Below, one piece after another: positions 3,037 through 15,651 of a stretch of 64,000 nt of DNA. The notes beneath the pieces were generated by a model. That model saw only the letters and a list, made by a program, of their open reading frames with translations. It did not search any database and was not told where the DNA came from. This stretch comes from Chloroflexota bacterium (GTDB taxonomy: Bacteria; Chloroflexota; UBA11872; UBA12225): NCBI GenBank assembly GCA_947446285.1, contig CANFGH010000001.1, positions 4,730 to 68,729 on the forward strand. The letters run 5' to 3'. Both the position numbers and the translations under genes were made by a program. The number at the start of each line of letters is the position of its first letter. Within the stretch, counting starts at the first letter, position 1.

Positions 3037-3966
3037 CTACCGGTCGGCTGGAGATCCATCCGTGCCCGACGACAGGCGCCCGTAGAGGCGTTCCAATTGG
3101 CGGGCATCTTCATAGTGAATGACGACCTTGCCTCCCCGGCGTCCCTGGATGAGGTCGACGCGCGTGGTGGTGTCGCCAAGGACGGACCGGATGCGCTGTG
3201 CGACCGGATGGGTTTCGACCGGGTTGGCAGGCGGTGGCGCGACCGATCCGGGCAGCCGCTTCACCAGCGCCTCGGTCTGGCGCACGTTGAGGCCTTCCCG
3301 GATGACCCGGGACGCCACTTCCCGCTGCCGGATGCTGTCTGGCAAGGCGAGCAGTGCCCGGGCGTGCCCTTCGGTGAGATCGCCGTCCCGGAGGTCCTGT
3401 TGCACGCTTGGAGGCAACTGCAGCAAGCGCAGGGTATTGGTGATGGTCTGCCGGCTGCGGCCCACGCGCTTGCCGATTGCCTCATGGGTCATGCCGAAGT
3501 CGGTGGACAGTTGGCGATACGCGGCGGCGGCTTCGAGGGCGTTGAGATCGGATCGCTGGACATTCTCGACCAGGGCCAGTTCAAGCCACTCCTGCGGTGT
3601 GGTGACCCGGACCGACACGGGAACGCGCAGCAGGCCAATCATCCGGCTGGCCTGCCACCGCCGTTCCCCGGCGATCAGTTGGTAGCGGGGCAGACCCCCA
3701 TCCTGGGTCGGCACCGGGCTCACCAGCAGCGGTTGCAGGACGCCGTGCACCCGGATCGAGTCCGCGAGGTCGGCCATTGCGACTTCGTCGAAGACCTGTC
3801 GCGGTTGACGCGGATTCGCGTCAATACGGTCGATAGCCACCTCAAAGGGCGTCCCGTCCGGCACCGCGTCCGCGTGCACCTGGGGCGGGCGTGTTGCCGC
3901 GGTGGGCTCCGGTGTCGACGCGATCAATGCGTCCAGACCCCGCCCGAGGCCCCGTCGTGGTGGCAT
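3037..3966 (-). CDS. parB: Chromosome partitioning protein ParB/Spo0J
   Basis: NPRQPR, GVLQPLLV, arginine patch LIAGERRW, ENVQRSDL, and HTH GRSRQTITNTLRLL. Confidence 0.95.
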   Translation of the reverse strand: MPPRRGLGRGLDALIASTPEPTAATRPPQVHADAVPDGTPFEVAIDRIDANPRQPRQVFDEVAMADLADSIRVHGVLQPLLVSPVPTQDGGLPRYQLIAGERRWQASRMIGLLRVPVSVRVTTPQEWLELALVENVQRSDLNALEAAAAYRQLSTDFGMTHEAIGKRVGRSRQTITNTLRLLQLPPSVQQDLRDGDLTEGHARALLALPDSIRQREVASRVIREGLNVRQTEALVKRLPGSVAPPPANPVETHPVAQRIRSVLGDTTTRVDLIQGRRGGKVVIHYEDARQLERLYGRLSSGTDGSPADR

Positions 3967-3968
3967 TG

Positions 3969-4787
3969 CTACACCCCCCCCAACGTTGCGGGCCGGGCTG
4001 CGTCGAACCGGGCATCAAGTTCGGCCGCGAGGGCACGGTATGCCTCGGCACCGCGTCCGGAAGGGTCGTAGCGCATGATCGACTGGCCGTAGCTGGGTGC
4101 CTCGCCCAGTCGGATCGTCCGCGGGATCATCGTCTGCAGGAACAGGTCCGGGAAGTGCGTCCTCACCTCCTCGACCACATGCTGGCCGAGACCGGTGCGT
4201 GCATCGAACATGGTCATCAGCAGGAAGAGGCCGCGCAGTTCCGGGTTGAGGCGGTCGCGGACCCGGCGCAAGGTATCGAGCAACTGGGTCAGACCTTCCA
4301 AGGCTAGGTATTCGCACTGGATCGGGGCGAGGACGGACGCGGACGCCACGAGTGCATTAAGGGTAAGCAACCCGAGGGCCGGCGGACAGTCGATCAGCAC
4401 GTACTCGTAGGTCTCAGTGGAGCCAAGCAACGCATTCCGCAACCGTTCGACCCGGTTTGCCTGTCCCACAAGCTCGGTTTCGACGCCGGCCAGGTCCGGT
4501 GACGACGGGATCAGGTCGAGCCGCGCGCCAGCGGGCACCTGCTTCCCCGCGGCGTCGGGCACGGCGACGATGACCGATGTGGCGGTGGCCTCGCCGAGCA
4601 GGAGTTCGTAGGAGCCGGGAAGGTCCTTGCTGGACCCGACCGCACTGGTCAGGTTTGCCTGGGGATCAATATCCACCAGCAGGACCCGGCGTCCCCGCGC
4701 CGTGAGCGCCGCGCCAAGGCTTGCCACGGTGGTCGTCTTCCCGACTCCACCCTTCTGGTTCGCAACCGCAATGATCCGGGTCGCCAT
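3969..4787 (-). CDS. parA: Chromosome partitioning ATPase ParA/Soj
   Basis: Deviant Walker A NQKGGVGKTTT, DIDPQAN, IDCPP, QCEYLALEG; lies directly upstream of parB. Confidence 0.95.
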   Translation of the reverse strand: MATRIIAVANQKGGVGKTTTVASLGAALTARGRRVLLVDIDPQANLTSAVGSSKDLPGSYELLLGEATATSVIVAVPDAAGKQVPAGARLDLIPSSPDLAGVETELVGQANRVERLRNALLGSTETYEYVLIDCPPALGLLTLNALVASASVLAPIQCEYLALEGLTQLLDTLRRVRDRLNPELRGLFLLMTMFDARTGLGQHVVEEVRTHFPDLFLQTMIPRTIRLGEAPSYGQSIMRYDPSGRGAEAYRALAAELDARFDAARPATLGGV

Positions 4788-6503: not shown

Positions 6504-8597
6504 ATGGCGCAGACGTCCACCCATTCATCGGCAGCCGAACACGTCTCGGCGCCATCGAGTGGTGGTGTCCGTGGCCTCGTGCGGCGCGCGCTCCATGACC
6601 CCCGGTCACTCGCCTACCGGCGCACCCTTGTCGTCATCCTCATAGCCATCCTGACGTCGGTCATGGCACTCGTCCTGGAGACCGTCCATCCGCTGCACGA
6701 AGACTATCTGTCGACGTTTGTGACGATCGATTACGCCTTGCTTGTCCTCTTCACGGTCGAGTACGCGTCGAACATCTGGGTTGCCTCGAACCGGCGTGCG
6801 TACCTCTTCAGCATCTGGGGGGTGATCGACTTCCTTTCGATCGCGCCCTCGTTCCTGGCACTGCTCGACGTGTCTGGCACCGGAGGGACGCTGATCCCAG
6901 GGGTGAACATCGGATTCCTGCGGGAACTCCGCATCCTGCGGGTCTTGCGGATGCTCAAGCTCATGAAGGTTGCCAGCGAACGTGCGGCGGAGTCGAGCGC
7001 GAACGCCAAGGACAGGAACACGTTCTGGCTCGACATCCAGATCTACCTGATCTGCCTGTTCACCGTCCTGGTCATCAGTGCGACGGTGGTCTATCACATC
7101 GAGCCGTATCCGGTGGACGCACCCGTGTTGTCCGAGGCCCTGGTGCTGCTGGCGGATGACGCCGGACCGGTGACGGATGCGTGGGCGTCAAGCCCGATGA
7201 TCCCGATCTACAAGGCCCGTGCCGACCAAGGATGGCCACTCCCGACCTACACGTTCGACAATGTCCCCATGACGATCTGGTGGGCATTCGTGACCTTGAC
7301 AACCACCGGCTATGGAGACATGTACCCGGTCACCGGGATCGGTCGCTTCGCCGGCGCGCTGACCATGTTTGCGGGCTTGGCGCTCTTCTCCCTCCTGACC
7401 AGTGTGGTCGGTCGAACCTTGATGCGGTCGTTATTCGGCCGGCAGGGGGATGGAGACCCCCAAGCGGCCGAACGGAGTGCCAAATTGCGGGCCCTGCTCG
7501 ATTCCCTTCGGCTGCTTGCACCTCCGGCGCTGCCCGGAAGCGTTCGTTCCACCCGAGTCCGGGATGACGACCAACCGACGGACCTGACGACGGTCTTTTC
7601 CGCACCGTCGCTCGCAGGGTTCGGGGAAGCCGCCCGGGTCATTGCCCGGGAGACCGTGGAGGCCACCGGAGGGCGACAGATCGACACGGCCAAGCCAGTT
7701 GCGACCGATTCGGTCCTGACCCGGGTTCTTCGCCTTGCGTTCGTCGACGAACGGTCAGAGCTGTTCGCCTGGGTGCGCCGCGTGCTGACCGTCCTCATCT
7801 TCGCGTCGATCGGGATCGTGATCCTCAATTCGGTGTCCGAGGTCCACGAGGCTCTCGGCCCCACGTTCGAGATGTTCGAGATCGCGATGGTGGTCCTCTT
7901 CTCGATGGAATACCTGTCATACCTCTACCTGGCGACGAACAAGCGCGCCTACGTGTTCGGTTTCTGGGGGCTTGTGGACCTGTTCGCCATCCTTCCCACC
8001 TACCTCACCCTTGTGCTGGCGCTTTCATCCACATTCGGCATGGAGGTTGACCTTTCTCACGGCATTGCGTTCAAGATCATCCGCATCCTGAGGGTGCTCA
8101 GGATGTTGCGCGTCCTGAAACTCATGAAGTCCGCGGTCACGTCGGCGCAGGCCACGATGTCTGGGAAGCAGTCATCGTTCTGGATGGATCTCCAGATCTA
8201 TTTCATCGCCCTGCTGACCGTCCTCACCATGTCATCCACGTTGATCTACACCCTTGAGGTTGACCAGACCGGTACGCAGTTCATCAACATCCCCGTCGCG
8301 ATGTGGTGGGCCGTCGTCACCATCACCACCACCGGGTATGGAGACATGTTTCCAATCACGCTGGCCGGCCGCGTCGTTGCCATGGGCACGATGATTGCGG
8401 GCCTCGCCCTGTTCGGCATCCTCACCAGCGTCGTCGGGCGTGCCTTGATGAGTTCCCTGTTCGGCTCGAGTGGGGAGGACACCGATGGGGACGGCGACCT
8501 TGACGTTAGCGAACCACTTGACGATGCCCTCCGGACCGTCGAGTACCTGACCGGTCAGGCGAGCCCGTCACCGGTTGCCGGAGCAAGCGCGAAGTAA
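6504..8597 (+). CDS. Voltage-gated K+ channel with two tandem 6TM repeats (paralog 1)
   Basis: Two S4 segments (LRELRILRVLRMLKLMK; [18 protein letters not shown]) and two K+ filters ([10 protein letters not shown]; [10 protein letters not shown]), each with S2 FxxEY and S3 xDFL/DLF motifs. Confidence 0.9.
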   Translation: MAQTSTHSSAAEHVSAPSSGGVRGLVRRALHDPRSLAYRRTLVVILIAILTSVMALVLETVHPLHEDYLSTFVTIDYALLVLFTVEYASNIWVASNRRAYLFSIWGVIDFLSIAPSFLALLDVSGTGGTLIPGVNIGFLRELRILRVLRMLKLMKVASERAAESSANAKDRNTFWLDIQIYLICLFTVLVISATVVYHIEPYPVDAPVLSEALVLLADDAGPVTDAWASSPMIPIYKARADQGWPLPTYTFDNVPMTIWWAFVTLTTTGYGDMYPVTGIGRFAGALTMFAGLALFSLLTSVVGRTLMRSLFGRQGDGDPQAAERSAKLRALLDSLRLLAPPALPGSVRSTRVRDDDQPTDLTTVFSAPSLAGFGEAARVIARETVEATGGRQIDTAKPVATDSVLTRVLRLAFVDERSELFAWVRRVLTVLIFASIGIVILNSVSEVHEALGPTFEMFEIAMVVLFSMEYLSYLYLATNKRAYVFGFWGLVDLFAILPTYLTLVLALSSTFGMEVDLSHGIAFKIIRILRVLRMLRVLKLMKSAVTSAQATMSGKQSSFWMDLQIYFIALLTVLTMSSTLIYTLEVDQTGTQFINIPVAMWWAVVTITTTGYGDMFPITLAGRVVAMGTMIAGLALFGILTSVVGRALMSSLFGSSGEDTDGDGDLDVSEPLDDALRTVEYLTGQASPSPVAGASAK

Positions 8598-8603
8598 CAG
8601 GTC

Positions 8604-8634
8604 GGCCCGTCCCGGATTGGATCCGGGACGGGCC
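8604..8634. terminator. Perfect 14-bp hairpin between convergent channel 1 and cyclophilin
   Basis: GGCCCGTCCCGGAT-TGG-ATCCGGGACGGGCC. Confidence 0.7.
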
Positions 8635-8687
8635 GTCCAGGGGTTTCCTGACCGATTTTCGCACGGGTCCAGCGTGCGCCCTGGGCG

Positions 8688-9200
8688 TTACGCGACGGTG
8701 ATCTCAATGGTCTCGATCACGTCACCCGGGGTTGCGGAACGGCCGGGGTCGCGTTCCGAGATGGACTTCAGGACGTCCAGTCCCTTGACCACCGTGCCGA
8801 AGACGGCGTGCTTGCCGTCGAGGTGGGGCGTGGGCCCGTAGGTAATGAAGAACTGGCTTCCGTTGGTGTTCGGGCCGGCATTCGCCATCGACAGGATGCC
8901 CGCATCGCTGTGACGGTTCTTCAGCGCGGATGCCTCATCCTTGAACCGGTAGCCCGGGCCACCGCTCCCCGTGCCGGTCGGGTCACCAGTCTGTGCCATG
9001 AACCCGGGGATCACCCGGTGGAAGGTCACTCCATCGTAAAAGCCGTCCTGGGCCAGGAACACGAAGTTGTTCACCGTCAGCGGCGCCGACTTGGCGTACA
9101 ACTGGATGACGATGTCGCCCTTCGCAGTCTTGATGGTCGCGGTGTGGTCCTTTGCAGGGTCGATGGTGAGTTCGGGGGGTGCGTCGTACTGCTTCGACAT
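8688..9200 (-). CDS. Cyclophilin-type peptidyl-prolyl isomerase
   Basis: [59 protein letters not shown]; start ATG 9200. Confidence 0.95.
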
Positions 9201-9427
9201 CGTGGGTTTCCTCTCCGCACACGCGCGCCGGACGACAATGCCGGTCTTGTCCGCCGGGTTCCAGGTCGCCGTGGGGTGGCCAAGAGTGTAGCGTTGCCAT
9301 CCGTTTCGCGACTGGTTGGTATGCTTCCACCGGTCGCGTTCTTTGGTCTTAGGCACATTGTCGTTTGCGAACGTCGCCACCGCGAACCACGCAGTTCTGA
9401 CTGGCGTGACATTTGGGAGCCCGGAGC

Positions 9428-11680
9428 ATGGTGAAGCAAGCGCCGCCGACAACGGATCAGGGTCTGCACGAGAACGGGCACGTCCCAGTCCACAATGGTG
9501 ATCACGGTTCCGCCGCTGGGTTGGCGCGCGAGAACGGCGCCATCAAGGACCTTCACGCCACCCACCAGCGCTCACCCGGCCTGAAAGGTCTGGCAGAGGA
9601 TGCGATCCTTCACCCGCATACGGCAGCATACGACGTTACCTTGAAAGTCGTGCTGGTCGCGATCCTCTCGAGCATTTGCATCCTCGCCCTTGAGACGATG
9701 CATCCACTGGTGGAGGATTACCGGGAAACGTTCCACGCCATCGACCTGACCCTCCTTGTCATCTTCACCGCTGAGTACCTACTGAACGTCTGGGTCGCCC
9801 CCAACCGCAAGGCGTACATCTTCTCTCTATGGGGGGTCGTGGATTTCCTCGCCATCGCGCCGGCGTACATCGAGTTGGCCTTCGGCGGGATGGAGAGCCT
9901 GATCTTCCTGCGGCAGCTGCGCATCCTGCGGGTCATGCGGATGCTGAAGCTCCTCAAGCTCGCGGCTGAGAAGGCCGCCGAATCAGCCGCTAAAGCGACC
10001 GAGAAGAAGTCCAGCTTCCTCATGGACATCCAGATCTACATGATCTGCCTCTTCACGGTGCTGACCATCAGCTCGTCGCTCCTGCACTTGTTCGAGGGCG
10101 TCCGCCCTGGAGTTCCGGAACTTACCGGGGATGCACTGGTGGAACTCGCCAAGGGTGAGGAGGAAGGCGCGTCACCCGAGTGGGCGGACGACCAGATGGT
10201 CCAGTTGTACGCGGAACGGGCCGGGAAGGGATGGAGCAATCCGGTCTATACGTTCACCAGTGTGCCCAAGGCCTACTGGTGGTCAATGGTGACGCTCACG
10301 ACCACTGGGTACGGCGACATGTTCCCAGTGACCCTCCCGGGCCGGATCGTCGCCGGTGTCACCATGCTCGCCGGACTTGCGCTGTTCTCGCTCCTCACCA
10401 GCGTCGTCGGGCGTGCGTTGATGACGTCCCTGTTCGGGAAGGGTGGTGACGCGGACGCTGTCGGCCACAAGATCCTTGTGATCGGCGGTGGTCGCCTGCC
10501 GCCGGGAGTGAATGTGTTGGCGCTCGTTGGCGGAGGCGGGGCAGCCGAACCTGTGGGCGTCGCCGGAACCCCGGACAATCCCGCTCGCGACCGGAGTTCA
10601 CTTGAAACGGCGTTCCTCGACTCCGAGGTGAAATTTTCGGACATTACCGCATCGGCAAGTCATGTTGCCGAAAGCATGGTTCTTGCTGCGTCCGAAGGCG
10701 GCGTCAAGCACGATGAGGCAATCCGACGCGAGAACCCCAACGCCCTTGACAAATTCATCTATGACGCGTTCGCCGACCATTCCTCGAAACTGTTCATGCC
10801 GATGCAACAGTTCCTCACAGGACTGATCTTCGCATCGGTGGTCCTCGTCGTCGCGGACTCGATCCATGAGGTCCACGAGGAATACCACACCGCGTTCGAG
10901 TGGATTGAGCGGATCATCGTCTTCTGCTTCACCTTCGAGTTCCTCGCGAATTACCGCCTGGCACCCAACAAGATGGCCTACGTCTTCAGCATGTGGGGGA
11001 TAATCGACGTACTGGCCGTCCTTCCCACCTACATCGATATGGTGATCAATTTTTTGGCCTTTATCGGCATCGAGATGCAGCTTGGAGGCGGCTTGCTCTT
11101 CAAGGTCCTGCGGATGTTGCGGGTCCTGCGGATGCTCCGGACCCTGAAGCTTGCAAAGGCCGCTTCGGAAAAAATGGCAGCGGCCATGGAGGGGGGGGGT
11201 AGGTCGTCTTTCTGGAGCGACTTGCAGATCTACCTCATCGCCCTCTTTACCGTCCTCATCATTTCCTCAACCCTGATGTGGAACGTGGAGTATGACCCAC
11301 TAGCCGACCCGCCATCGACGACGCAGTTCATCAACATCCCCGCGTCGATGTGGTGGGGGATCGTGACCCTGTGCACCGTTGGGTACGGCGACATGTTCCC
11401 GATCACCATTGCGGGACGGGCAATCGCCGGCGTGACCATGCTTTGTGGTCTGGCACTCTTCGGGATCCTGACCAGCGTCATCGGGCGTGCCCTGATGGCG
11501 TCGCTCTTCGGTGAGGAGAAGGAGCCCGAGCCTCAGGTCATCTACCTCGACGCACCGTCAGATGATCCCGCCCCAGTCTTGTCCGGCTTGGAGCGGTTGG
11601 TCGTCCTGCGTTCGGCAGGTGCCCTCAATGACGAGGAGTTCGAACGCGCCAAGGCGCAGGTTCTGGCCATGGGCGCCTGA
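9428..11680 (+). CDS. Voltage-gated K+ channel with two tandem 6TM repeats and C-terminal SHOCT domain (paralog 2)
   Basis: Two S4 segments ([17 protein letters not shown]; [18 protein letters not shown]), filters [10 protein letters not shown] and [10 protein letters not shown], and C-terminal [26 protein letters not shown] (SHOCT pattern). RBS GGAG precedes ATG 9428. Confidence 0.9.
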
Positions 11681-12260: not shown

Positions 12261-13727
12261 TTGACGCTCATGGTGGACAAGCGCCCTGACCGGTCGGTGA
12301 TTGCCTTTCCGGTTCCGGACGATGGGCCGGAACTCGGGACTGTTCGAACCGGGGCGCCAGTGGCGATTGCCGAGCGGTACCGCGGGGCTACCATCGCCGG
12401 GGTGGTCACCTCTGATCGCCAGGTGATCCGGAATATCCTGGTGCCACTTGACGGGACCGCGGTCGCCGAGGCGGCGATCCCTCATGCGGTGGCCTTGGTC
12501 AAGGTGACGGGTGCGGCCCTGCATCTCATCCGGGTCATTGCGTCGTCTGCGGTCACGGTCCTGCCTTCGGTTGCAACCGAACTGTCCTCTGGTGGACAAC
12601 TCGGCACGGGGCTGGGCGATGTGTATTTCAATCAGGTGGGGTCGGGCGGGGGTCTTTCGGCGGGCGAACCCCTGGCTATCGGGGCGACCGTCTATCTCGA
12701 AGAGATCGCCGATCGCTTGCGTGCGCAGGGCATGGCGGTTCTCCCCGCAGTGCGCGTTGGACCGCCAAGTCAGGTGATCGCAACGGTGGCCGCGGCCTTG
12801 GGCATCGACCTGCTCATTCTGGCCAGTGAACCGCATCGTGGTCTGGCGCGACTGGTAGCGGGAAGCGTTGCCGATGAGCTTTTGCGGACGGCGCCGTGTC
12901 CAGTCATGTATGTCCGGACGGCACCCGCGCCGATTGAGAGCATTGCCGATGGCCTGCGCAATTTCGCACGCGATGTCGCCCGTGCCGGCGCACTTTCGTC
13001 GGTGAGATTGGGGTTGCGTGAAGTTCCAGTGGACCGGATTACCGGGAGTGTCGGCCGTGGTCACGAGTTGAACGCATCATTCCTGCCCCGTCGGCCGCGC
13101 AAGGACGACACGGCACGGTTCAAGGGGGTGAAGGACCGTCTTGAGCATGGCTTGCCCATGCCACCCCTCGAGCTTTACAAGTTTGGCTACGACTACTTTG
13201 TTCTTGACGGACATCATCGGGTCGCGGCGGCCCGGCAACTTGGCATCCGTGAACTTGAGGCCGAGGTCAGCGAATACTTTTCGTCCTCCGATGCGGAACA
13301 GCAACAGGTCTTCGTGGAACGGCGGGTCTTCGAGCGTCAGACCGGCTTGACAAAGGTTGGCGCGTCGCGCGTCGGAACCTATCCGGGCCTTCTGCAGCTG
13401 ATCTCGGTAACGCCCGAGCGGGAGACCCTTCTGCCCCTTGGTGCGACGGTGGGTCAGGCCGCCCGGGACGCGTGGAGCCGCTGGTATTTCGGGTTCTTCC
13501 AGGAAATGCAGCGATCAATGCGCGCCCAAGGCCTTCATGGTGCCTTCCCTGGCGAGCGCTCGGCGGACATCCTTGTCCGGTTGGCGCAGTTTCGCGAGAG
13601 TGAGGCTCGCCTTGGCCAGGAGGTCAGTTGGGAGCGGGCGGTCGGCCACTTTGCCGCTGCCTATGGCCGCCGTCCCCGTGGCCGGGGATGGAGCCTGCTT
13701 GATCTTGTGCCCGGGGGCCGTGGTTGA
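12261..13727 (+). CDS. Universal stress protein fused to a ParB/sulfiredoxin-like domain and a DUF4032-like helical tail
   Basis: USP: ILVPLDGTAVAEAAIPHA...GSVADELLRTAPCPVMYV. ParB/Srx: VDRITGSVGR...LELYKFGYDYFVLDGHHRVAAARQLG. Confidence 0.75.
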   Translation: MTLMVDKRPDRSVIAFPVPDDGPELGTVRTGAPVAIAERYRGATIAGVVTSDRQVIRNILVPLDGTAVAEAAIPHAVALVKVTGAALHLIRVIASSAVTVLPSVATELSSGGQLGTGLGDVYFNQVGSGGGLSAGEPLAIGATVYLEEIADRLRAQGMAVLPAVRVGPPSQVIATVAAALGIDLLILASEPHRGLARLVAGSVADELLRTAPCPVMYVRTAPAPIESIADGLRNFARDVARAGALSSVRLGLREVPVDRITGSVGRGHELNASFLPRRPRKDDTARFKGVKDRLEHGLPMPPLELYKFGYDYFVLDGHHRVAAARQLGIRELEAEVSEYFSSSDAEQQQVFVERRVFERQTGLTKVGASRVGTYPGLLQLISVTPERETLLPLGATVGQAARDAWSRWYFGFFQEMQRSMRAQGLHGAFPGERSADILVRLAQFRESEARLGQEVSWERAVGHFAAAYGRRPRGRGWSLLDLVPGGRG

Positions 13728-15003: not shown

Positions 15004-15651
15004 TTGCCGGGGTATCCCCACCGGCCGATCATTGCCACTGATGCGCTGATCCTCAAGCTGACGGCTGCGTTCGGGTGTGCCGGGTTTGCGCTTTTGGCGA
15101 TGCAGTCGTTTTTCCAGGACTGGAACCGCGCACTTGCCGGTCTCATCTACGGAGCCACCCTCGCAGCTTCATCAGTTGCTTCGATGGTCTACAACCGGTA
15201 CTTCCGCCATGTGGCCGGCAGCCGGGGCAACCGGTACTGGCGAATGCTGGATCACGTCGCCATCTTCCTGCTCATCGCGGGCACCTACACGCCGTTCGCC
15301 TGGATCGGGTTCCGTGATGGCGGTGGCTACCTGCTTCCGCTTGTCTGGGCGCTCGCCGGGATCGGGATTGTCCTGAAGTTCATTCTGAAGTTCCGGTTTC
15401 CAATCCTTTTTGTCGCCCTCTACATGGCGATGGGGTGGGTCGTGGTCCTCGGTGCCGACCATCTCTTTCGCGATCTCGACCCGGTTGTTCTCGGGCTTCT
15501 CGTTGCCGGTGGCGTGATCTACACCGTCGGGGTGCTGTTCCATCTTCTGAAGAATTGGGTCTGGTACTCGGCGGTGTGGCACGGGTTCGTCCTGACGGCG
15601 TCAGTCGTCCATTTCGTCGCGATCTGGGGATTCATCCTCCCGGCAGCCTGA
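15004..15651 (+). CDS. Hemolysin III / PAQR-family membrane protein
   Basis: About 7 hydrophobic helices with SMVYN, LDHVAIFLLIAGTYTPF, YTVGVLF and AVWHGFV motifs. Confidence 0.9.
   Translation: MPGYPHRPIIATDALILKLTAAFGCAGFALLAMQSFFQDWNRALAGLIYGATLAASSVASMVYNRYFRHVAGSRGNRYWRMLDHVAIFLLIAGTYTPFAWIGFRDGGGYLLPLVWALAGIGIVLKFILKFRFPILFVALYMAMGWVVVLGADHLFRDLDPVVLGLLVAGGVIYTVGVLFHLLKNWVWYSAVWHGFVLTASVVHFVAIWGFILPAA

Follow-up and report, generated by a model that had tools for sequence, protein, structure and literature searches.

Within the window, the whole stretch of 64,000 nucleotides analysed here, an uncultured Chloroflexota bacterium has two genes of the tandem 2×6TM Kv-type K+ channel type on the + strand. 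Gene A (6504..8597) encodes 697 aa, and gene B (9413..11680) is covered by a longest ORF of 755 aa beginning at TTG 9413. The probable start codon of gene B is instead ATG 9428 (MVKQAPP..., 750 aa), since the N-termini of the orthologues P0014 and P0020 match this start and GGGAG is present 9–13 nt upstream of it. A cyclophilin-type PPIase is encoded between the two genes on the − strand (8688..9200; Pfam Pro_isomerase, E=2e-49). Pfam placed Ion_trans (PF00520) twice and Ion_trans_2 (PF07885) twice in each ORF (E=2e-51 for A and 4e-59 for B), and the scores of the family models, each spread over two stretches, were 174.7 bits for A and 200.4 bits for B (curated cut-off 25). The sole annotation of P0001, which is 98% identical to the gene A product, is 'ion transporter [Chloroflexota bacterium]'.

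Architecture of the two genes

All parts described here are on the + strand, and the limits of the repeats, each a pre-S1 helix followed by S1–S6 in A, are those of our own repeat profile. In gene A, repeat 1 (aa 23–317) covers 6570..7454 as an hmmsearch envelope. Its S4, FLRELRILRVLRMLKLMK (6915..6968), has a basic residue at every third position, four Arg and two Lys, and its selectivity filter is TLTTTGYGD (7293..7319). Between S5 and the pore helix, alignments reveal an extracellular turret insert of ~50 aa (7104..7256) with no counterpart in repeat 2 or in short subfamilies. In the AF2 model this insert is folded into three short helices (209–217, 225–228 and 232–241; block-mean pLDDT 68–84). 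A cytoplasmic linker (aa 318–405; 7455..7718) continues in frame with poor conservation and with pLDDT <50 at aa 342–374. Repeat 2 (aa 406–659; 7719..8480) contains S4 at 8070..8129 and the filter TITTTGYGD at 8319..8345, so that TTGYGD is found at aa 267 and aa 609 of A.

Gene B is built in the same order. Repeat 1 (aa 58–347; 9584..10453) contains S4 (9905-9958), a turret insert (10097-10255) and the filter TLTTTGYGD (10292-10318); the linker covers aa 348–445 (10454..10747); and repeat 2 (aa 446–705; 10748..11527) contains S4 (11099-11158) and the filter TLCTVGYGD (11366-11392). The motifs TTGYGD (aa 297) and TVGYGD (aa 655) mark the two filters in the protein. The C-terminus carries a SHOCT-like helix pair (11588..11677; PF09851, E=1e-4, 22.4 bits, below the Pfam cut-off of 27). 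This tail has a dN/dS of 0.077 and is conserved among B/C-type relatives, with similar tails in P0014 and P0020.

The K+ signature filter T(T/V)GYGD is found in all four units of the two genes, three times as TTGYGD and once as TVGYGD, each time after a WW pore helix. S4 carries R1–R4, K5 and K6 in all four, and the acidic counter-charges of S2 and S3 (D) are conserved throughout, together with the S2 Phe (S2 motif D/E-x7-F-x2-E). A and B are colinear over 665 residues with 48% identity, whereas repeats 1 and 2 are only ~39% identical to each other. These results agree with the preliminary description of the locus, which had read two voltage-sensor and pore units in each gene, GYGD filters in all four units, and a pairwise likeness of repeat 1 to repeat 1 and repeat 2 to repeat 2; the motifs that it quoted (IQIYxICLFTVL, LQIYxIALxTVL and others) are all present.

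The best solved relatives by sequence were Kv1.2, Kv2.1, Kv3.1, Kv4.2, Shaker, KvAP and KcsA, with E-values down to 3e-25; this value was obtained for repeat 2 of A with Kv2.1, in an alignment that is gapless from S4 to S5. The equal S4–S5 length suggests a domain-swapped arrangement of the Shaker type. The NCBIfam model K_channel_Meth (NF040645, MVP-type hyperpolarisation-activated) gave 63.4 and 59.5 bits, below its cut-off of 300. An AF2 model computed with the family alignment (pLDDT 70.8, pTM 0.64) contained helices that fit two sets of S0, S1–S6 and P-helix, and its best Foldseek matches were Kv chains. This model bore out the secondary structure; a prediction run with no alignment was unusable (pLDDT 38.8). 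Superposition of the whole monomer on solved chains was poor (TM 0.17–0.21, query-normalised; rmsd 11–32 Å), which means that the relative placement of the two repeats is not fixed by the model.

Integrity and origin of the tandem

A and B are genuine fusions. One continuous frame runs through the linker in >40 relatives, which were assembled independently of one another (sources NCBI, ENA, JGI and Logan), and purifying selection acts on repeats as well as linkers. In A, dN/dS was 0.043 for repeat 1 (against the G421 orthologue), 0.18 for the turret, 0.134 for the linker and 0.065 for repeat 2; in B, it was 0.087, 0.194 and 0.068 for repeat 1, linker and repeat 2, giving ranges of 0.04–0.09 for the four repeats and 0.13–0.19 for the linkers. 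We regard adjacent single-6TM genes wrongly joined in assembly or annotation, or pseudogenes in decay, as extremely improbable. The UBA2235 assembly does have both genes split into two frames, but its break in B falls at a run of N, that is, at a scaffold gap, and with no stop between the repeats in the independently assembled relatives and linker dN/dS <0.2, the artefact raised as a caution in the preliminary description is contradicted.

All members of the tandem family belong to a single Chloroflexota family, whose MAGs carry the labels TK10/UBA2235; they form >50 protein clusters in five or more subfamilies. Our repeat profile found two units in every complete relative. Five tandem paralogues are present in this genome of ~3.5 Mb, including a third close paralogue, C, on another contig (C182). 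Key residues of S2, S3 and S4 are kept in both repeats of all subfamilies in the alignment, and so is the canonical filter, except in one filter-degenerate subfamily. The latter has lost GYG from both repeats, which shows that the scaffold can serve a purpose besides K+ selectivity.

In the trees, tandem repeats are separated from single-repeat proteins with support of 100/99, repeat 1 is monophyletic (95/86), and the repeat labels require only the minimum number of changes. Repeats 1 and 2 are sisters, and around them stand bacterial K+ channels with one 6TM unit, which make up the rest of the clade. The family goes back to one ancient internal duplication that is older than all gene duplications, in the order already proposed from the sequences of A and B. 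P0056, the nearest single-repeat relative examined, has as neighbours a Kup transporter (K_trans) and a two-component pair of histidine kinase and response regulator that is KdpD/KdpE-like. This protein first fell within repeat 1, as if split secondarily from a tandem, but denser sampling moved it to a single-repeat clade outside the tandems.

These trees also bear on the link to eukaryotic channels. The preliminary description had placed this architecture on the way from single units, through TPC, to Nav/Cav. The 2×6TM topology in common might mean that A and B are true TPC-family homologues, or that they descend from a prokaryotic ancestor of eukaryotic TPC, Nav and Cav; both readings are exceedingly unlikely. 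The GYGD filters of all four units are of K+ type, and TPC was absent among the best 60 sequence matches and the best 50 fold matches listed. Neither the best matches listed nor the trees, which held no TPC sequences, pointed to common descent with TPC, Cav or Nav domains, in which D1 would go with DI/DIII and D2 with DII/DIV. Moreover, the sister relation of the two repeats among bacterial single-6TM K+ channels argues for a duplication private to the Chloroflexota family, hence for an independent event and not for an intermediate toward Nav/Cav. The repeats of A and B are Shaker/KvAP-type Kv units that reached the TPC topology independently, and what is left of the proposed link is an analogy of topology. 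With an origin independent of eukaryotic channels, the family has no direct bearing on TPC ancestry.

Two other groups of matches were inspected as possible tandems. Betaproteobacterial matches of 526–555 aa consist of a VSD followed by VSD + pore with one filter, and are no two-pore channels. A clade with four repeats and no GYG filter was considered as prokaryotic 4×6TM; it is probably eukaryotic, because the two members inspected are each alone on a transcript-like contig of 3.7 kb.

Proposed channel and its assembly

We consider it likely that A and B are dimeric, pseudo-tetrameric, voltage-gated K+ channels of a lineage-specific, concatenated Kv-type family. Each chain contains two complete, diverged 6TM units, in each of which a voltage-sensor domain (S1–S4) is followed by a pore domain (S5-P-S6). 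Since four P-loops are required for a K+ selectivity filter, two chains of A or B most likely form a dimer, which is the assembly expected from first principles and that suggested earlier. Repeats 1 and 2 would then alternate round a single central pore as a two-fold pseudo-tetramer, in the manner of TPC and K2P dimers. This pore is predicted to be K+-selective from T(T/V)GYGD and the WW pore-helix cuff in all four P-loops, gating would depend on four voltage sensors of two kinds, and the channels presumably regulate membrane potential or the flux of K+. For A and B, dimer stoichiometry, K+ selectivity, voltage gating with its polarity and physiological role are what we infer.

A different use of the two repeats can be imagined, in which four chains build a twin-pore complex with one pore of four repeat 1 units and a second of four repeat 2 units. 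The linkers of A and B, being 88–98 aa long, flexible, poorly conserved and in part disordered by prediction, would permit this. However, linkers of other subfamilies (P0033-P0045) have only ~20 residues from S6 of repeat 1 to S1 of repeat 2, which favours neighbouring placement within one pore, and in all natural tandems known to us (K2P, TPC) and in engineered Kv concatemers the linked units sit side by side in one pore. The twin-pore complex is therefore very unlikely.

A and B could also be obligate partners in a heterodimer whose pore is lined by four different repeats, like asymmetric four-domain channels. Their proximity is conserved: the order GNAT/A/PPIase/B/USP is kept in two genera between which A orthologues have only 63–65% identity, and every occurrence of A has B beside it. 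On the other hand, the PPIase gene on the opposite strand splits A from B, so that the two are not co-transcribed but belong to separate transcription units. In our scan, promoter and terminator matches were no more frequent than chance. The PPIase is probably a conserved neighbour without a functional link to the channels. Moreover, one genome (G412) has B/C-type genes without an A-type gene, paralogue C lies elsewhere in the present genome, and the two filters per chain are already enough for a complete homodimer pore. Obligate partnership thus appears unlikely, and homodimers of A or B would suffice for the channel proposed above. In a looser form, heteromers may form among the paralogues, with A joined to B and/or C or to filter-degenerate members; the pores would then be truly asymmetric, lined by four different repeats and with voltage sensors of mixed kinds. 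This is speculation, and we consider it unlikely. If true, such heteromers would provide a natural prokaryotic parallel, reached independently of eukaryotes and accessible to structural work, to the transition from homotetramers to four-domain channels.

Significance

A survey of 270 prokaryotic genomes in 2005 found neither 12-TM channels nor any others in which one chain carries two pore domains (PMC2234077), and a 2026 paper on K2P-type tandems stated that the tandem K+ channel architecture is absent from bacteria (PMC13715775). The Chloroflexota family is a clear counter-example in the 12-TM form. The earlier statement that no prokaryotic counterpart has been characterised stands: in the searchable literature (PMC2234077, PMC13715775 and PMC7576140), with subscription journals mostly outside its scope, we found no described prokaryotic 2×6TM K+ channel.

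Concatenation of 6TM units, the assumed first step in the evolution of TPC and Nav/Cav, occurred in bacteria too and was maintained by selection; the two repeats then diversified and the family expanded to five or more subfamilies. Small prokaryotic tandems of this kind are suitable for structural work, which could reveal how a single K+ pore is operated jointly by voltage sensors and pore quarters of two non-identical kinds. A further question is why one Chloroflexota lineage has five or more tandem channels in a genome of ~3.5 Mb.

Comparison with known systems

Each repeat of A and B resembles a complete unit of Kv channels (KvAP, Kv1.2/Kv2.1/Kv3.1/Kv4.2) in its R/K ladder, charge-transfer-centre residues, Kv-length S4–S5, WW helix, T(T/V)GYGD and S6 glycine. 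Known Kv channels, however, are tetramers of chains with one 6TM unit, whereas A and B have two diverged units fused in each chain. In addition, A and B lack a T1 domain, and the A-, B- and C-type proteins carry the turret insert in repeat 1.

In K2P channels, viral Kpov included, each chain likewise has two P-loops, and only the first pore domain has a lengthened extracellular loop; the channels are dimers, as we propose for A and B. They are 2×2TM proteins without voltage-sensor domains, whereas in A and B a complete S1–S4 precedes each pore domain. TPC1 and TPC2 of eukaryotes share 2×6TM per chain and, if A and B are dimeric, a pseudo-tetramer of two-fold symmetry whose voltage sensors are of two kinds. 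But TPCs are Na+/Ca2+-permeable, lack GYG and are endolysosomal or vacuolar, in contrast to the K+ filters and Kv affinity of A and B; according to PMC6259924 (citing Rahman et al. 2014), TPCs group with Nav/Cav domains.

[quoted passage not shown] Their first repeats cluster together and their second repeats likewise, and co-evolution and specialisation of the repeats have been described (PMC7576140; PMC2234077). They differ in being eukaryotic and known from sequence only, and P0104, the sole certainly eukaryotic tandem in our tree, is far from the Chloroflexota clade.

Another parallel in form is a second prokaryotic 2×6TM clade (P0118, P0153, P0156, P0133, P0183, P0223, P0225, P0226 and P0227, the last from a Promethearchaeota MAG). 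Its members are compact (548–691 aa), with two Ion_trans units, two GYG filters and prokaryote-type gene neighbourhoods. In the tree, however, their own repeats 1 and 2 group together, apart from the Chloroflexota repeats, and were duplicated independently. With a family of >50 clusters and this unrelated second clade, A and B are no longer a unique pair, and their architecture is rare, yet not unique.

Two neighbouring genes with two channel units each

The preliminary description of this locus, including the motifs it quoted, proved accurate: genes A (6504-8597, + strand, 697 aa) and B (9413-11680, + strand, 755 aa counted from the first TTG) are open reading frames with two channel units each. 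In Pfam searches, each product showed a pair of Ion_trans and a pair of Ion_trans_2 stretches, at E=2e-51 (A) and 4e-59 (B), and the four P-loops read TLTTTGYGD and TITTTGYGD in A and TLTTTGYGD and TLCTVGYGD in B. Limits of repeat 1 (R1) and repeat 2 (R2) were set by a profile made from the four repeats, at residues 23-317 and 406-659 of A and 58-347 and 446-705 of B, with cytoplasmic inter-repeat linkers of 88 and 98 residues, respectively. A and B align colinearly with 48% identity over 665 residues, whereas any pairing of R1 with R2 gives just about 39%, and thus R1 resembles R1 and R2 resembles R2, as had been proposed. The true start of B is probably the ATG at 9428, because GGGAG lies upstream and the resulting N-terminus, MVKQAPP, is the same as in the orthologues P0014 and P0020. 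At its C-terminus, B has a SHOCT-like segment (22.4 bits against a Pfam cut-off of 27) which is under strong constraint (dN/dS 0.077).

Voltage-sensor residues are kept in all four repeats. The S2 pattern D/E-x7-F-x2-E (acidic, Phe, Glu) matches E226/F233/E236 of Kv1.2, the S3 Asp is intact, and each S4 carries four Arg and two Lys, one at each third position. Alignment of R2 to Kv2.1 with HMMER spanned S2-S6 (E=3e-25) and was gapless from S4 to S5, which points to an S4-S5 segment as long as is usual in domain-swapped Shaker-type channels. In R1 of both A and B, S5 is followed by an insert of about 50 residues that precedes the pore helix; R2 has none. In an AF2 model that rested on a 44-sequence family alignment (mean pLDDT 70.8, pTM 0.64), the helices correspond to twice a pre-S1 helix, S1-S6 and a pore helix; the R1 insert forms three short helices and the linker is mostly disordered.

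Coding integrity

Fusion of separate genes during assembly was rejected as the origin of this architecture. Besides P0001, a protein 98% identical to A, relatives form about 55 clusters at 90% identity from NCBI, ENA, JGI and Logan assemblies, and in every complete one the two repeats share a single frame. Moreover, comparisons with same-genus orthologues gave dN/dS of 0.043 (R1) and 0.065 (R2) for A, 0.087 and 0.068 for B, and 0.134 and 0.194 for the linkers, all linker values thus being <0.2. Hence, both repeats and linkers are coding sequences under purifying selection. In UBA2235, an older assembly, both channel genes (DDYL01000072: 5977-8100 and 8915-11150) are split into two frames. The break in B coincides with an NNNNNN run, which is a scaffold gap, and that in A falls within the divergent linker; these breaks are probably assembly errors and not natural split genes.

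Distribution and genomic context

A two-repeat match was found in just 1 of 400 genomes sampled phylum-wide (218 genera), namely the window's own; the channels in the other genomes were single 6TM proteins about 280 aa long, with about 30% identity. In an order-level scan of 23 genomes, tandem genes were confined to two genera of the window's family, in which genomes carry up to seven or more copies. Labels on related contigs read 'Chloroflexota bacterium ... TK10' (a MAG from the hypolimnion of Lake Biwa), 'Chloroflexi bacterium UBA2235' and 'uncultured Thermoflexus sp.'. Five tandem genes occur in the window's own genome (3.4 Mb, 89% complete). Those outside the window are a third long, B-like paralogue, C (761-aa frame, C182:1129-3411, + strand), a 547-aa form with an insert of about 27 residues directly after the R2 GYGD (C4:75730-77370, + strand), and a filter-degenerate form split between contig ends (C86:11647-12948, + strand, and C183:3922-4542, - strand).

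The order GNAT(-)/A(+)/cyclophilin(-)/B(+)/USP(+) is kept in both genera. Upstream of the channel locus in the window lie genes for a HerA-like ATPase (176-2152), ParB (3037-3966) and ParA (3969-4787), all on the - strand; downstream are a universal-stress-protein fusion (12261-13727, + strand), a PALP enzyme and a HlyIII-family membrane protein (15004-15651, + strand).

History and subfamilies

In a per-repeat maximum-likelihood tree (IQ-TREE, LG+C20, 62 rows), all tandem repeats stand apart from the nearest single-repeat proteins (support 100/99), R1 is monophyletic (95/86; recovered in 96% of bootstrap trees), and the R1/R2 labels fit with the fewest possible changes. In an 87-row tree, the R1 subtree is mirrored by the R2 subtree. 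These topologies indicate a single internal duplication older than the split into at least five subfamilies, in agreement with the earlier view that internal duplication preceded gene duplication. The subfamilies comprise A-type, B/C-type, 565-aa short forms, 20-aa-linker forms, forms in which an insert immediately follows the R2 filter, and degenerate-filter forms. In the last (P0028, P0030, P0031, P0041, L026, L027 and the own-genome C86 locus, L004), the K+ filter is lost in both repeats (R1 ...ATHGSP..., R2 ...TTTGSGA...), and the S4 charge ladder is complete and S6 is kept. Such proteins may be non-selective, non-conducting or modulatory partners.

Proposed assembly and role

Four P-loops are required to form a K+ filter. 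Since each chain contributes two, with an even number of transmembrane helices and a cytoplasmic linker between them, the simplest assembly would be a dimer whose R1 and R2 units alternate round one pore and which has two kinds of voltage sensor. Dimer assembly, K+ selectivity and voltage gating of A and B are predicted here from conserved residues. Matches to the MVP equivalog were far below threshold and give no guide to the polarity of gating. A/B heterodimers are a speculation that the conserved adjacency of the two genes would favour. However, A and B lie in separate transcription units, B/C-type genes exist without A, and each chain is self-sufficient, all of which argue against obligate pairing.

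The channels probably take part in the homeostasis of K+ or of membrane potential. The one contextual hint comes from P0056 (L043:3001-4203), a single-repeat relative that has a long S5-P insert of its own. It adjoins a DUF4118-HisKA kinase and response regulator, which resemble KdpD/KdpE, and a Kup-type K+ transporter, and these neighbours suggest a role of its branch in K+ homeostasis.

Comparison with known channels

In a survey of 270 prokaryotic genomes, Loukin et al. (2005, PMC2234077) detected no chains with two pore domains, and so none of the 12-TM type. Tandem Kv-like channels were described by Pozdnyakov et al. (2020, PMC7576140) solely from dinoflagellates, oomycetes and a chlorarachniophyte, and Rauh et al. 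(2026, PMC13715775), whose subject is the K2P type, state that tandem K+ channel architectures 'do not occur in bacteria'. Within the limited coverage of the searchable literature, we found no published prokaryotic 2x6TM K+ channel, consistent with the preliminary description, which knew of no characterised one. Public databases name the family proteins 'ion transporter' or 'voltage-gated potassium channel'. The family is a real and conserved prokaryotic version of a known kind of channel, apparently not described before, and is of interest to channel evolution and structural biology.

The family profile was searched against 1.84 billion representative proteins, and a repeat tree was built with 236 rows. 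The 2x6TM architecture is not unique to the Chloroflexota family among prokaryotes: a second compact two-repeat clade has prokaryote-type neighbourhoods and goes back to a separate duplication (P0118, L044:1848-3632; P0153, L045:5001-7076; P0156, L046:5001-6668; P0133, P0183, P0223, P0225, P0226; and P0227, whose label is 'MAG: ion transporter [Promethearchaeota archaeon]').

Other multi-repeat proteins were also observed. Compact four-repeat Ion_trans proteins of 1030-1520 aa (P0136, P0139, P0141, P0142, P0162, P0167, P0181, P0182 and P0184), with pore loops FGE(F/Y), SGES, (S/T)GDY and GGEW (E/E/D/E), are sister to the second two-repeat clade in a FastTree tree; the two members looked up, P0141 (L047) and P0142 (L048), each lie alone on a contig of about 3.7 kb and are probably eukaryotic transcripts. 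Metagenomic P0079 (1748 aa), P0080 (L049:160-4641, 1493 aa), P0086 and P0127 have four consecutive 6TM units with a GYG-type K+ filter in each, and the very alike repeats of P0080 suggest recent duplication. Abundant bacterial K+ channels of 520-600 aa place one more voltage-sensor domain ahead of an ordinary 6TM unit (VSD-VSD-pore; P0245-P0338, e.g. P0247 'Betaproteobacteria bacterium' and P0273 'Burkholderiaceae bacterium', and P0230, P0234, P0240 and P0178); rarer forms have two or three additional VSDs, and some also a cNMP-binding domain.

The resemblance to eukaryotic two-pore channels (TPCs) is confined to topology. By sequence, both repeats match Kv1.2, Kv2.1, Kv3.1, Kv4.2, Shaker, KvAP and KcsA best among solved structures, with no TPC in the 60 best matches. 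By fold, Kv chains matched best, followed by Nav/Cav chains with poor superposition, and no TPC was found among the best 50 matches. In the 236-row tree, the tandems of Chloroflexota group as one closed clade (support 99) among bacterial single-6TM K+ channels, and the eukaryotic tandem P0104 and several other multi-repeat groups are placed elsewhere. On this evidence, the Chloroflexota architecture arose when a Kv-type unit was concatenated independently in bacteria. The Kv affinity and the tree placement thus leave topology as the only feature in common with TPCs, and the A/B family is neither an ancestor nor a member of the TPC family.
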